Origin: an uncultured delta proteobacterium
Lineage (GTDB): Bacteria > Desulfobacterota > Desulfobacteria > Desulfobacterales > B30-G6
DNA length: 64,000 bases
Assembly (NCBI GenBank): GCA_963823335.1
Contig: CAWGLD010000005.1
Span: 32,001 to 96,000, forward strand
Direction of reading: 5' to 3'
Shown in pieces: positions 18,226 to 60,260 of this stretch. Both the position numbers and the translations under genes were made by a program. Within the stretch, counting starts at the first letter, position 1, and each line of letters begins with the position of its first letter. A model generated the notes under the pieces. It saw only the letters and a list, made by a program, of their open reading frames with translations. It was not told where the DNA came from and did no database searches.

Positions 18226-18391
18226 TATGGATCCTTCTATACTTATTGTGATAACCGATTACTTTTTACTGCTTCTGAAGACCTGATAGCATTTTAGGGG
18301 TTTAGGCTGTAGGCTGTTAGGTGTTATTCGCTGATAGCTGTCAGCCACCCTCCAACCCTTGTATCACCCTCAGACCCTCGGACCCTTCTCT

Positions 18392-19660
18392 TTAATCCCC
18401 ATGCACCCGCCACATGTCTTCGTCTGTGTAACATTTTTCAGGGTTGGCATCCGCTCCCCTGGCGTCCATTTCGACATTTCGTATCGCTGGGGATGATGCG
18501 AGAATTTCACGGTAGTATTCATGCTGAATCAGCAGGTTCATGATTTCGTTGGTGCCGGTCCATATCTGCGTCAGACGGATATCTCGCACGATTTTTTCGA
18601 TGGGGTATACCTCTGTGTAACCGATTCCACCCATGATCTGCATGGCCTTGTTGGCAATTTCCCAGGCCGCATCGGTGGCAAATTTTTTGGCCTCACTGAC
18701 GAGTCTCCTCGCGTTGGGCGCCCCGGTGTCCACGGCGCGGGCCGCCATATAAACGATAGCCCGGGCGGCGTCCAGTTGTGTAATGGCATCCGCCACCATA
18801 AAATTGACGCCCTGGAACTTGCGGATGGCTTTTCCAAAAGCAAAGCGCTTGTCGCTGTAGCGCAGTGCAAGATCAAGCCCTGCCCGGACCCCCAGGCTTG
18901 CCGCAGCAGAGGTCAGGCGTTCTGGAATCATCATCTGGTGAAAGACCAGTGAACCGGAGTTCATATCGCTGATCAGATTCTCTTTAGGCACGCGGACATT
19001 TCTAAAGACAAGACGTCCGGTGCCGCCGCCCCGGGTACCCATGAGACCGTACTGGTATTCGGTTTCCACCCCCGGACCCCGTTCGATCAGCAAGGCACTG
19101 ATCCGTTCATACTTGTGGGCATTCTCGTCAAAGTTGGTCCGACAGTAAACCAGAAAAACATCGGCTTCGGTAGCTCCCACCACAAAACGTTTCTGGCCAT
19201 TGACGATGAAGTGATCGTTTTTCAGGGCGGCTGTTGTGGTGGCCCCAAAAAAGTCTGAACCACCTCTGGGTTCTGTCAGGGCTTCGGCACAGATGAGCTT
19301 GCCCTGTAGGATCGGTTTCAGAAATTTTTCTTTCTGGGTTTCGGTTCCAAATATGTGCAGTGCTTCACCGACGATGGAGGGCATCACGAAGGCACATCCC
19401 AATGCGGTTCCCAGGACACCGATTTCCTCTTCGGCAATGACCTCAGCGGTCCATGACAGACCGCGTCCGCCCCATCTGGGATCGAAGCGCAGACCGAGAA
19501 GATTCCTTGCGGCCAGTTTTTCGACGTATTCACGCGGGTATTCAATCTCATCCTTATCCATGGCACGGATCAAATCAGGAGACACGTCATCGCGTACAAA
19601 TGCCCTGACTTCCGCCTGGATGGCTTTTTCTGCATCAGTCATCATGCTGTCGTAAAACAT
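18392..19660 (-). CDS. Acyl-CoA dehydrogenase
   Basis: ALTEPRGGSD, NGQKRFV, QIMGGIGY, IWTGTNEI; start moved to ATG 19660 after SD AGGAGG because the longer ORF reads through a repeat array. Confidence 0.95.
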   Translation of the reverse strand: MFYDSMMTDAEKAIQAEVRAFVRDDVSPDLIRAMDKDEIEYPREYVEKLAARNLLGLRFDPRWGGRGLSWTAEVIAEEEIGVLGTALGCAFVMPSIVGEALHIFGTETQKEKFLKPILQGKLICAEALTEPRGGSDFFGATTTAALKNDHFIVNGQKRFVVGATEADVFLVYCRTNFDENAHKYERISALLIERGPGVETEYQYGLMGTRGGGTGRLVFRNVRVPKENLISDMNSGSLVFHQMMIPERLTSAAASLGVRAGLDLALRYSDKRFAFGKAIRKFQGVNFMVADAITQLDAARAIVYMAARAVDTGAPNARRLVSEAKKFATDAAWEIANKAMQIMGGIGYTEVYPIEKIVRDIRLTQIWTGTNEIMNLLIQHEYYREILASSPAIRNVEMDARGADANPEKCYTDEDMWRVHGD

Positions 19661-19678
19661 TTTGCCTCCTTTCCGAGG

Positions 19679-19819
19679 GTCATATAGCCTTCGGCTGTCA
19701 TTTGCACTTCGTGCGTCATTTGCGCTGCGCACGATATTAGGCCTGCGGCCGTCATTTATCCTTCGGATGTTATTAGCGCTACGCGCATCATTAAGCCTTC
19801 GGCTGTCATTTATTGTTGC
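19679..19819 (-). repeat. 18-bp-period array of seven GNA-triloop mini-hairpins
   Basis: 7-nt linker (gtcattt consensus on +) alternating with 11-nt palindromes agccttcggct, gcacttcgtgc, gcgctgcgcac, ggcctgcggcc, atccttcggat, gcgctacgcgc, agccttcggct. Confidence 0.95.
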
Positions 19820-19904
19820 TCACAGCGTATTGCTCGGAGTTTATTTAAAACTTAACACCTAAAACTTAACACCACCCTTAATGACGTGAAACAAATGACT
19901 TGCT

Positions 19905-21218
19905 CTATCCTTTACGATTATTTTCTAATACTGCGAGTCGCTTAACGAGCGCAAGCACCCCCTCCAACGTAGCGCCCTTGAATCGGATACCGAGAGCGGC
20001 CACGAGCATGTCCAGGCTGATCAACCGTTTCTGTTGTGCCAGGAGGCTCAATGCCACCATGGCCATATCCTGGCGCTTGATCTTATTTCCCTTGAAGTCA
20101 ATGGGTAGTATGGTGCCGCGACACTTCGGGATTTCTGCCTTTGAATCCGCCAAGACAAAGGTGTCATCACTGCAGGTACTGAATACCGCTTTTTTGCGGT
20201 CGATGCCTTCCTGTCCCAGGGCCAGAATAACATCTGGTACTGTGATGCCGGCGTAGTCTATTTTGTCGGGGGATAAAATCACCTCACAGGCCGAGTGTCC
20301 CCTTAGAACCGTAATCGGGTAATCATTTTTCTGGGTTGCATGGAGTCCGGCCGTGAGTCCGGCATAGCACAATATCTCACCGGCGGTAACGATCCGCTGA
20401 CCGGCACTTCCCAGAATCAAAATTTCTTTGCGGTCGTTAAAGAGAGCTGGAAACTTCTTTGACACCTCCATGGGTGCCGGCAATGGTTTCTGCAAAGAAG
20501 CCTTTTGTCTATAGTGCTCACCGTACTCCTCCCGAATGTTTTCCGAAACAGGTCCATGATAGGTCGGCAGGCTGTCGATGGATGCCTGGATGGTCTTGAA
20601 GGTGGTTTTGTTTTGGCGGGTGTAACGACCCGGGCAGATGCCCCAGATGTCCATGGTGGAAAAGCCCTTGAATCGAATGGCCTGTTCCATTTCTGTTGAA
20701 AGGTCACTCTGGTAGGCAGAAACTCGGGTAACATAGCCTGCCCCGGCTGCGCGCACTACCCGGCAGGCATCCATGGGCTTCTCTATCTGGTTGAGAAAGC
20801 CGGATCCCACCAGTGCATCCTGCGGTGTGGTGACCGAGAACTGACCTCCGGTCATTCCATAATTGAAATTGTTGAGGATCAGCAAGGTGATGTCGATGTT
20901 GCGTCGGCAGGTGCTGAGCAGGTGGGCACCGCCGATACCCAGACCGCCGTCCCCCATGGTGACCACCACATGAAGATCGGGTTTCGCCAGTTTGATGCCC
21001 GTGGCATAGGTCAATGCCCGGCCATGGAGGCCGTGAAAAGCATGGGTCTTGAAAAAGGTGTCGAAAAGGCCTGAACAACCGATGTCACTAACAATAACGA
21101 CCTGGTTTTCGTGGATGCCCATCTGCAAAAAAGTCTTGTCCAGGGCGCGTGTCACGACCTCGTGAGAGCAGCCGGGACAATAGGCCGGCGGTCTGGAACT
21201 ATTGATAAAACTAGGCAT
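19905..21218 (-). CDS. 2-oxoacid:ferredoxin oxidoreductase fused beta (TPP-binding) and gamma-like domains
   Basis: YCPGCSH, SDIGCS, GDG...NN TPP motif, YGMTGGQFS; C-terminal LGSAGQRIVTAG gamma-like domain. Confidence 0.9.
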   Translation of the reverse strand: MPSFINSSRPPAYCPGCSHEVVTRALDKTFLQMGIHENQVVIVSDIGCSGLFDTFFKTHAFHGLHGRALTYATGIKLAKPDLHVVVTMGDGGLGIGGAHLLSTCRRNIDITLLILNNFNYGMTGGQFSVTTPQDALVGSGFLNQIEKPMDACRVVRAAGAGYVTRVSAYQSDLSTEMEQAIRFKGFSTMDIWGICPGRYTRQNKTTFKTIQASIDSLPTYHGPVSENIREEYGEHYRQKASLQKPLPAPMEVSKKFPALFNDRKEILILGSAGQRIVTAGEILCYAGLTAGLHATQKNDYPITVLRGHSACEVILSPDKIDYAGITVPDVILALGQEGIDRKKAVFSTCSDDTFVLADSKAEIPKCRGTILPIDFKGNKIKRQDMAMVALSLLAQQKRLISLDMLVAALGIRFKGATLEGVLALVKRLAVLENNRKG

Positions 21219-59395: not shown

Positions 59396-60065
59396 GTGTG
59401 CCAAGAGCGCACTTTTAAATATAGTGTGTGCAACTGTGTAAAAGATGAGGGTTGTTTGGCCCCTCGGAGCCGGCTTGCAGGAGCAGGCTTCAAACCGCCT
59501 AAAGCTGCGTTGGTTAAGAGCCAGGGTGGTGAGCGTTTAGGAAAAGTCACGGCATAGGATCGTGGCAGGTACGACTCAGAGAGATGAGCGCAAGCGAACC
59601 ATTCGATGAAGCGTCGAAAGATCATGGACGAGGTCAAAACTGAGCTGATATATGGGGTTCAGGATGAGCTTAGGGGGAGCCTGCGTATTGCCTAAGTGGC
59701 CTCCGGCGTTAAGGTGGCATGAATCTGAGTTAGGCTTTTGCATGGAACTTGGGAACCTGTCGTCTCGATGTTAAGGGAGAAATTCAAGTGGAGATCCCAC
59801 AAGAATGAGAGTACCGATGCGAGGCACAGGGGCGGATCATCCCGTATTAGTGTTGAAGTCTCTGTAATGGGGATGGAGTGAAGGGGATGAGCCAGCTCGC
59901 AGCAAGTGAAGGTCAACCAGGAAACTGGGAGGAACCGGATTTATTTCTGCGTAGGCTTGAGACCGTGAGGTTTCAAGAGAATGGCTGGCAGGAGCGGTAT
60001 GACGGGAGACTGTCACGTACCGTTCTGAGAGGGCCTGGGGGTGAAATTCCCCCGGGCACTCGACT
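59396..60065 (+). ncRNA. ORF-less group II intron (IIB, RmInt1/class D-like)
   Basis: 5' GTGTG; domain V gagcggtatgacgggagactgtcacgtaccgttc; domain VI hairpin ending cgac(t); no RT ORF; 3' end +/-1 nt. Confidence 0.92.
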
Positions 60066-60260
60066 CGGTATTGTTGAAATCGTCGAACCTTGACCAATCC
60101 GCTCAAATCATGTACGTATCTTACATTGCACTCAAATCACACTTGGGCTGAATCTTCAAACTGAACCTGATCTATCCTCATTCTCGACCTGTTCTTACCT
60201 TTCAAAGATGTATCATCTTTTTTTATCAATTGCTTTATTACAGACTCAGGAGGACAGATC

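Follow-up and report, generated by a model that had tools for sequence, protein, structure and literature searches.

A phased array of C-GNA-G mini-hairpins in a Desulfobacterales genome: probable arm of a decayed four-helix-bundle gene cassette

The 64,000-nucleotide (nt) stretch of DNA analyzed here, referred to as the window, comes from an uncultured delta proteobacterium (Desulfobacterales, B30-G6; GenBank assembly GCA_963823335.1, contig CAWGLD010000005.1, positions 32,001 to 96,000 of the forward strand). Between two genes on its minus strand, it carries a tandem array of 11-nt hairpins separated by 7-nt linkers (19679–19811). We find that this array is one member of a dispersed family, and we conclude that it is probably the surviving 3′ arm of a decayed, gene-less derivative of a selfish cassette, with the inner junction and a remnant of the 5′ arm alongside. 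The intact cassette consists of a gene for a four-helix-bundle protein of about 120 amino acids (PF05635/TIGR02436) between two mirror-image arms. The membership of the array in the family follows from the 45 arrays found in the source genome, against none in a control, and from the head sequence common to nearly all of them.

Results

Read on the minus strand, the array consists of eight linkers of the WAATGWC type (from 19811 down, AAATGAC, TAATGAT, TAATAAC, AAATGAC, TAATATC, AAATGAC, AAATGAC, and ATATGAC) alternating at an exact 18-bp period with seven 11-nt hairpins of the form NNNC-GNA-GNNN, in the order AGCCGAAGGCT, GCGCGTAGCGC, ATCCGAAGGAT, GGCCGCAGGCC, GTGCGCAGCGC, GCACGAAGTGC, and AGCCGAAGGCT. 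Every unit has a 4-bp stem, a C-G closing pair, and a GNA loop (GAA in four, GCA in two, and GTA in one), and direct reading thus bears out the description given in the original prediction. Tandem Repeats Finder reports the array at periods of 18, 36, and 54. The one non-Watson–Crick pair that had been noted is a T-G in unit 5; since the orthologue in the related genome G007 has C-G at this pair, the T-G is a single uncompensated C-to-T change. Both flanking genes are on the minus strand, with a 2-oxoacid:ferredoxin oxidoreductase beta-type gene (TPP_enzyme_C and POR domains; TAG stop at 19907–19905) upstream and an acyl-CoA dehydrogenase gene downstream. The array had been placed, in sense orientation, just before the Shine–Dalgarno sequence of the latter, and indeed GGAGG (19669–19665) lies 9 nt past the end of the array. 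The start of the dehydrogenase is likely the ATG at 19660, not the GTG of the longest open reading frame (ORF). A looser, one-unit pattern applied to the window alone gave 11 matches against 7.4 expected, which is not significant, and 7 of the 11 are this array.

The source genome, G000, is a 4.37-Mb assembly of 11 contigs, 94% complete, and the same genome reversed, but not complemented, was used as the control. G000 has 45 clusters of at least three linker-plus-hairpin units, and the control has none. For clusters of two units, the counts are 12 and 5, respectively, so about half of these are noise. Thus, the array is not the singular feature for which it had been taken, but belongs to a dispersed family; it follows a conserved head, ACAATAAATGAC, and what remains of an opposite arm lies farther upstream. 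The arrays lie between genes, any overlaps with called ORFs being due to over-extended starts. They are found in operons for acyl-CoA metabolism and for other functions, and the flanking genes share no common family.

The pairing was evaluated in a set free of circularity, in which 11-nt segments were picked by three phased linkers alone, without use of pairing. There are 135 such segments in G000 and none in the reversed genome, which together with the cluster counts rules out chance. Four Watson–Crick pairs are present in 113 of the 135 units, and the C-G closing pair in 125. Pair 3–9 is Watson–Crick in 134 units (C-G in 61, G-C in 47, and A-T in 26), with a mutual information of 1.46 bits; pair 2–10 is so in 130, with three types (C-G, T-A, and G-C) and 1.04 bits; and pair 1–11 in 122, with 0.63 bits. 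The mutual information in the set is concentrated on these three pairs. Hence, the stems conserve structure, not sequence, as had been claimed from the window alone. Since the perfect units comprise only 11 stem types, the covariation reflects few events.

The preference for GNA loops also extends to the other copies, as predicted. The loop is GNA in 118 of the 135 units, with G at position 5 in 119 and A at position 7 in 132, while the middle base is free (A in 81, C in 33, T in 18, and G in 3). The variant loops of 4 nt (GATA, GCTA, GGCA, GTAA, GAAA, and GCAA) also run from G to A, and some arm units have the exact 7-nt form GCGAAGC. A loop rule of G...A with a free middle is equally compatible with the sheared G-A loops found in mini-hairpin DNA and in GNRA-type RNA. 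The commonest loop defect, seen in 16 of the 135 units and frequent in G007, is an A at loop position 1 (CAAAG or CATAG for CGAAG or CGTAG). The change is from G to A at the closing-pair CpG, and it resembles decay of the methyl-cytosine type on the opposite strand. One common type, AGCCGAAGGCG, retains a terminal mismatch in its 9 copies. The T-G wobble had been read as a strand signal; family-wide, however, the GNA strand has 8 G-T wobbles and its complement 5, which is uninformative as a strand test.

Two other readings of the repeat were rejected. The 18-nt period leaves two frames open for coding, but the 12-nt units with 4-nt loops break the frame, and the ORFs within arrays (66 amino acids on the plus strand in the window, 88 amino acids at locus L158 of G007) are spurious. 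A CRISPR-like reading fails on anatomy, as the "repeats" would be only 7 nt long and the "spacers" are 11-nt palindromes drawn from a small vocabulary.

Nearly all arrays are preceded by a single conserved junction, the head, which in the window lies at 19805–19846 on the minus strand and reads ...CCGAGCAATACGCTGTGAGCA-ACAATAAATGAC (in G000 overall, ...AGCAACAATAAATGAC). Many copies have a full hairpin, composed of GTCATTTATTGT, 18 nt of AGCTATC-type words, and ACAATAAATGAC, of which the head forms the 3′ half. One of three modules is found upstream of the heads: G-rich 8-mers of the AGGGTTGG type, G/T-rich 7-mers of the AGGTTTT type, or a short opposite arm, in which linkers in reverse complement surround 7-nt mini-hairpins. 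The window copy has both G/T-rich words and the opposite arm. The former are two tandem 14-nt words, GGTGTTAAGTTTTA (19846–19873, minus strand; period 14, 2.0 copies, 100% match), which form a separate word module. The 5′-arm remnant, GTCATTTGTTTCACGTCATTA (19879–19899, minus strand), reads GTCATTT-GTTTCAC-GTCATTA; in reverse complement, these are two linkers with the 7-nt mini-hairpin GTGAAAC between them. It begins 5 nt past the TAG stop of the oxidoreductase beta gene and is conserved in the related genomes G007, G005, G006, and G001. A Bacteroidales cassette, L176, has the same string in its upstream arm.

The arms of the cassette consist of a tandem 7-nt word (AAATGAC and variants) alternating with G+C-rich hairpins that are closed by C-G and have G-N-A or G-N-N-A loops. 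The cognate gene is of the TIGR02436 subfamily, with 2gsc as the nearest solved relative. All six cognate-type genes seen in the genus have arms of AAT[GT]AC words with GNA mini-hairpins. Both arms are present at the intact genes in G002 (L163), G004 (L172), G007 (L212), and G009 (L213), and at a broken copy in G000, while a truncated copy in G005 (L169) has units on one side only. The inner ends of the arms, GTTATTTGTTGT ... ACAATGAATATC, correspond to the inverted repeat of the head. Linkage to genes, which had been proposed as a check on the array, is thus seen for the four-helix-bundle gene (6/6 in the genus) and not for HUH genes, as none of the eight Y1_Tnp loci in G000 has units within 1.5 kb.

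PF05635 matches number 20 in G000 and from 7 to 23 in each of five relatives. In these relatives, 30 loci around such matches were inspected, and units were found at 4, one of which (L158) is just an adjacent array. All 20 matches in G000 lie between inverted runs of short words, each match having words of its own. The broken copy at C1:744963-745178 alone has AAT[GT]AC-type linkers and GNA mini-hairpins, and its arms alternate 13-nt hairpins, GCTCCGNAGGAGC, with 9-nt hairpins; the other 19 have other words and no such arms. The word types at the PF05635 loci of G000 include GGATTCCAG, GGGTTGGAG, GTGAGAC, CGGGATCG, and AACATCG, and several cassettes are near-identical and present in multiple copies; C2:127769-128083, C7:178049-178363, and C4:31300-31611 are examples of such loci. 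A search of G000 between head halves up to 4 kb apart gave no ORF-bearing copy. G003 (74% complete) contains arrays, and the cognate gene was not found in it. G001 has no arrays by the strict pattern (0 of 3 orthologous spacers) and no cognate gene at E up to 1e-15. In viral contigs, single-protein patterns, which reach close relatives only, gave no relatives of the cognate gene.

By the two-unit pattern, the family is present in 7 of 9 genomes of the genus, in 4 of 4 of a sister genus, and in 0 of 26 other families of the order. In a sample of 300 other genomes of the phylum, four have two or more matches (78, 13, 3, and 2), and single matches are about as frequent as in the reversed control. 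The species-representative genomes contain at least 108 matching stretches. Among the 80 matches listed, most are from Desulfobacterales-type metagenome-assembled genomes (MAGs), 11 are from nine Bacteroidota-labelled MAGs, and one is from an actinobacterial MAG. The last proved on inspection to be a simple duplication and not a member of the family. At the Bacteroidota loci, AAATGAC words accompany mini-hairpins 7 to 13 nt long, often with an opposite arm of GTCATTCAATA words.

Three of five such Bacteroidota genomes encode proteins with 64%, 57%, and 56% identity to the G004 protein, and there is one broken copy besides. All four of these gene loci are flanked by GTCATT/AATGAC arms with mini-hairpins, although at L178 the hairpins are in one arm only. 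By contrast, the best intact paralogue in G000 is only 44% identical. The gene subfamily and the arm type therefore travel together across phyla, and the comparison shows that one PF05635 subfamily moves between Desulfobacterota and Bacteroidota with its arm design. At the Bacteroidota locus L177, the gene is followed directly on its 3′ side by ACAATGAATGAC and then by the 11-nt units GGCCGCAGGCC and GCACGCAGTGC and further units of 11 and 13 nt. Thus, the downstream arm at L177 has the head and unit type of the window, with ACAATGAATGAC lying between the four-helix-bundle gene and the arm.

The orthologous acyl-CoA dehydrogenase spacer was compared in G000 and eight relatives. In G007, it contains 7 units, of which the last two hairpins are of other types than those in G000. 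One of these two, ATCCGAAGGCT, is a chimera in which the ATCC and AGCC types meet within their common core, and three further units differ by one base (two with CACAG for CGCAG, and unit 1 with a GCA loop for GAA). The G005 spacer has 3 units, and the length difference is exactly 72 nt, equal to four units. There are 2 units and a complete head hairpin in G006. The G001 spacer has 0 units and retains only GGCATTTGTTTCACGTCAT, 14 nt, AAATGAC, and the ribosome-binding region. In G004, G008, and G009, unrelated word repeats are found instead. The spacer is a hot spot for several word repeats, and this hypervariability between species speaks against the earlier idea of a role tied to the acyl-CoA dehydrogenase gene. 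An RNA-library contig (run X2, record 14) joins the two genes over a different spacer, of 223 nt rather than the 286 nt of the window (19670 to 19957), showing that a close strain with another spacer was present in that sample.

Two other loci behave similarly. A plain 52-nt spacer in G001 corresponds to a mosaic of about 290 nt in G000 at one of them, and in the other comparisons the order and number of units differ between G000 and G007 or between G000 and both G008 and G009. Locus L158 of G007 contains runs of identical two-unit blocks with a common loop mutation (five identical 36-nt blocks). It had been proposed that slippage is insufficient and that an unusual templated process builds the repeats. 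However, the whole-unit differences, the chimeric unit, and the identical blocks are accounted for by ordinary in-register duplication, deletion, and unequal exchange, and no special templated builder is needed. Among the genomes of the genus, G007 is the richest in copies, with 62 strict two-unit matches, and in its higher-order arrays (C1:130877-131121, C8:60203-60427, and C15:33665-33858) a unit pair recurs at periods of 53, 64, and about 72 nt.

The window contains a second, small family member on the plus strand (9947–10019), with a head of TTCATTGT...ACAATAAATGAC, a 7-nt ACGCAGT mini-hairpin, a CAT spacer, GCGCGTAGCGC, and linkers. It lies just past a TAA stop, in sense with both neighbors, and ends about 35 nt before the next ATG. 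Directly past the stop of the acyl-CoA dehydrogenase gene (18283–18386, minus strand), there is a run of G-rich 8-mers (AGGGTCCG, AGGGTCTG, AGGGTGAT, AGGGTTGG...), which continues with CTGACAG/CTATCAG words and then with CCTAACAGCCTACAGCCTAAA words; these are the upstream modules of the composites without a hairpin array.

The ribosome-binding region of the dehydrogenase, CCTCGGAAAGGAGG (19665–19678, minus strand), lies outside the repeat and is retained in all five close orthologues, including one without units. Its CCUC can pair with GAGG, and in the RNA fold the ribosome-binding site may be sequestered in this small hairpin; the region is kept whatever the number of units upstream. Also on the minus strand, at 19658–19768, the ATG of a linker opens a frame that crosses the last units, overlaps the dehydrogenase start, and stops soon after, with AAGGA of the preceding unit upstream; this is possibly an accidental leader ORF. 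Elsewhere in the window, group II intron RNA domains (RF01999 and RF00029) were found at gathering scores at 59447–60069.

Discussion

We consider the array in the window to be, with better than even probability, what is left of the 3′ arm of a cassette that has lost its gene. On this model, arrays would lengthen and shorten through slipped-strand or unequal recombination, made possible by linkers and cores that are identical. The ability to form hairpins would be kept because the parent element needs the units, either as sites for its own protein or for a mobilizing or processing activity, and intrastrand templated repair of near-palindromes may help to keep them. The orphan copy would have no dedicated host task and would simply be carried along in the spacer between two co-oriented genes.

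Several observations weigh against this model. A clean insertion with target duplication was not found at the orthologous sites compared, and the "empty" orthologue in G001 still has the outer motifs GGCATTTGTTTCACGTCAT and AAATGAC, so decay or growth in place is as possible as insertion. No intact cognate gene is present in G000, at 94% completeness, where the closest copy is broken; hence, any dependence on its protein would be historical there. The arms of the intact cassettes share a vocabulary but not an order and are not unit-for-unit mirror images, and at intact genes in the genus their hairpins are of 13 and 9 nt. Only at L177 were the head and 11-nt units seen directly beside a cognate gene. 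Finally, arrays of at least three units between co-directional genes are sense in 27 cases and antisense in 4 (p = 3e-5), with orientation taken from crude gene calls (the longest ORFs, chosen greedily). This bias could reflect selection at the level of the transcript.

Such selection is the basis of the first rival explanation, that the array is a co-opted RNA element. A row of hairpins upstream of the ribosome-binding site in a polycistronic transcript would protect or insulate the downstream cistron, perhaps by blocking 5′-end-dependent decay after processing or by uncoupling translation. The sense bias agrees with this, as does the downstream gene being in sense for 35 of the 45 arrays. 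There is no sign of a replication-strand preference, the GNA strand being on the G-rich skew strand in 27 of 57 arrays (a crude proxy in 11 contigs). Arrays lie within catabolic operons, often reaching to within tens of bases of a start codon, and no promoter-like site was found at the window array, where a single terminator-like site lies on the plus strand and the sense strand has none. However, a requirement for the array is not conserved, since the orthologous spacers contain 7, 3, 2, or 0 units or quite different repeats. Moreover, the bias is 18:1 where G/T-rich words precede the array and 9:3 (p = 0.15) where they do not. The strand bias relative to transcription that was to be looked for thus exists overall, but it is not significant for arrays without these words, and it may belong to the G/T-rich modules rather than to the hairpins. 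Folding of the spacer is modest compared with shuffled sequences (z = −1.9 for sense RNA, z = −2.2 for antisense RNA), and RNA mini-hairpins are much less stable than the DNA versions, according to passages of a review (PMC13037366). As DNA, the spacer gave z = −1.6 in a nearest-neighbor fold, with a parameter set that is not stated to credit special loop stability. In the predicted RNA fold, the GUCAUUU words of the left arm pair with the AAAUGAC linkers in several registers, with the mini-hairpins as side branches; such pairing may explain why the linker is constant and the stems are variable. The RNA-library contigs over 18900–20700 include no listed piece that spans the whole stretch. The pieces on the array have loose ends, some of which, by our reading, match the flank of another copy (C1:1832.7k). 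These contigs show neither transcription of the array nor RNA ends, and such libraries may contain DNA. Overall, we regard co-option as an RNA element as unlikely.

A purely neutral minisatellite, with no function even for the parent, whose palindromy came from intrastrand template switching and which drifted by slippage, is in our judgment quite unlikely as well. It would readily give the whole-unit insertions and deletions, the chimeric unit, and the identical duplicated blocks, it needs few events in view of the 11 stem types, and the CG-to-CA loop defect resembles plain mutational decay. Yet the 7-nt linker and C-GNA-G core persist in two phyla with a co-travelling gene, the loop ends G and A are kept around a free middle in loops of both 3 and 4 nt, which correction of stems would not yield, and the mismatched type AGCCGAAGGCG remains uncorrected in 9 copies. 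Movement as single-stranded DNA (ssDNA) by a Y1 HUH transposase (RAYT or IS200/IS605 TnpA) that recognizes the hairpins, as for REP or REPIN elements, seems improbable. The units are indeed extragenic, abundant, and hairpin-forming, their GNA loop and C-G closing pair belong to a very stable type of DNA mini-hairpin according to the same review passages (PMC13037366), and G000 has eight Y1_Tnp (PF01797) matches. Within 1.5 kb of these eight loci, however, there are no units, and the distance to the nearest array is 7.4 kb. The units are direct head-to-tail repeats without inverted pairs, neither skew strand is favored, and no GTAG-like guide tetranucleotide was noticed by eye in the printed units and linkers, although no dedicated search was made. 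Finally, a double-stranded operator array, in which the 11-bp palindromes are bound by a dimeric regulator of acyl-CoA operons, is hardly credible. The regular spacing of the palindromes near genes of acyl-CoA metabolism, including a TetR-family gene, would suit it, but the outer stem varies freely with compensation, so that hairpin potential rather than a recognition sequence is kept; in addition, the flanking genes are unrelated across copies, and units occur in other phyla.

The remains of a cassette, which we favor, can be compared with known repeat systems. REP, BIME, and REPIN elements of Enterobacteria and Pseudomonas are extragenic palindromic units that form mosaics between co-directional genes and change rapidly among relatives. 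REP units are imperfect palindromes of about 20–40 nt with a guide tetranucleotide and are arranged in inverted pairs. The arrays described here are likewise numerous, extragenic, and mosaic with G-rich and AGCTATC-type words, but their units are 11 nt, head-to-tail, and at an 18-bp period, and the associated gene encodes a four-helix-bundle protein, not a Y1 transposase. Thus, membership in the REP/RAYT group fails on transposase and anatomy, and no match to a described REP or STRR family, which had been named as a refuting outcome, was found.

The parent cassette shares its plan, a small PF05635-family ORF between inverted terminal sequences, with the intervening sequence (IVS) of 23S ribosomal RNA (rRNA). 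In Leptospira and Coxiella burnetii, the IVS with its S23p/PF05635 ORF is called selfish, and horizontal transfer is suggested, in passages of the article consulted (PMC4990558). This plan is seen at L163, L172, L212, L213, L176, and L177. The copies here, however, lie between protein genes, not in helix 25 or 45 of 23S rRNA, and no inverted repeat of at least 14 nt was found in the window's own 23S gene. Membership among the IVSs therefore fails on location. The arms are long arrays of 7-nt words and mini-hairpins and not a single stem of 28 bp as described in the same passages for Coxiella (PMC4990558); since the cassette arms differ in unit order, a perfect long stem of that kind is unlikely. 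The window copy has one arm and a 21-nt remnant of the other, without an ORF.

The unit core, a C-G closing pair with a G-N-A or G-N-N-A loop, resembles the mini-hairpin DNAs d(GCGNAGC) and d(GCGNNAGC) of Hirao, Kimoto, and colleagues, of which the DNA forms are far more stable than RNA in the passages of the review (PMC13037366). The natural examples named in these passages are single sites (phage G4-type origins, ssiA of RSF1010, and phage N4 promoters), and dispersed or tandem chromosomal arrays are not mentioned in them (PMC13037366). Ours is the only example that we found of arrays of this motif in bacterial chromosomes. The Rfam scan of the window gave no gathering-score match at the array, and a scan of 19600–19950 gave none at E up to 10, including Gut-1 (RF01706). 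Seven array-rich loci at E up to 1 gave only weak microRNA and snoRNA matches at chance level and no Gut-1. The GUCCY-hairpin motif (Weinberg et al. 2010), listed for Bacteroidetes and Proteobacteria in part of that paper (PMC2864571), has no Rfam model. One common unit here is GTCC-GAA-GGAC, and the motif may overlap with the units described here.

Conclusions

In the literature covered, which did not extend to subscription journals and supplements, neither the arrays nor any non-rRNA cassettes of a four-helix-bundle gene with arms of this kind were found to be described, and we found no stated function for PF05635/TIGR02436 genes outside diversity-generating retroelements. We tentatively propose, as a conjecture that goes beyond the origin of the window array and is considerably less certain, that arrays of AATGAC words and GNA mini-hairpins are the cis sites of a minimal, phylum-crossing mobile element, the sole gene of which encodes an Avd/S23p-like four-helix-bundle protein. 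This protein might recognize rows of ultra-stable ssDNA or RNA mini-hairpins in order to move or copy the element or to excise it from transcripts, and the gene-less arrays would be its non-autonomous offspring. If true, this would give the d(GCGNAGC) mini-hairpin a role in nature and a very large orphan family of proteins a function. The pairing of one small protein with one defined nucleic-acid motif is concrete and testable. The cassette design also accounts for dozens of odd 18-bp hairpin arrays inside operons. For annotation, the consequence is that such arrays upstream of genes should be regarded as hypervariable passengers rather than as conserved leaders.

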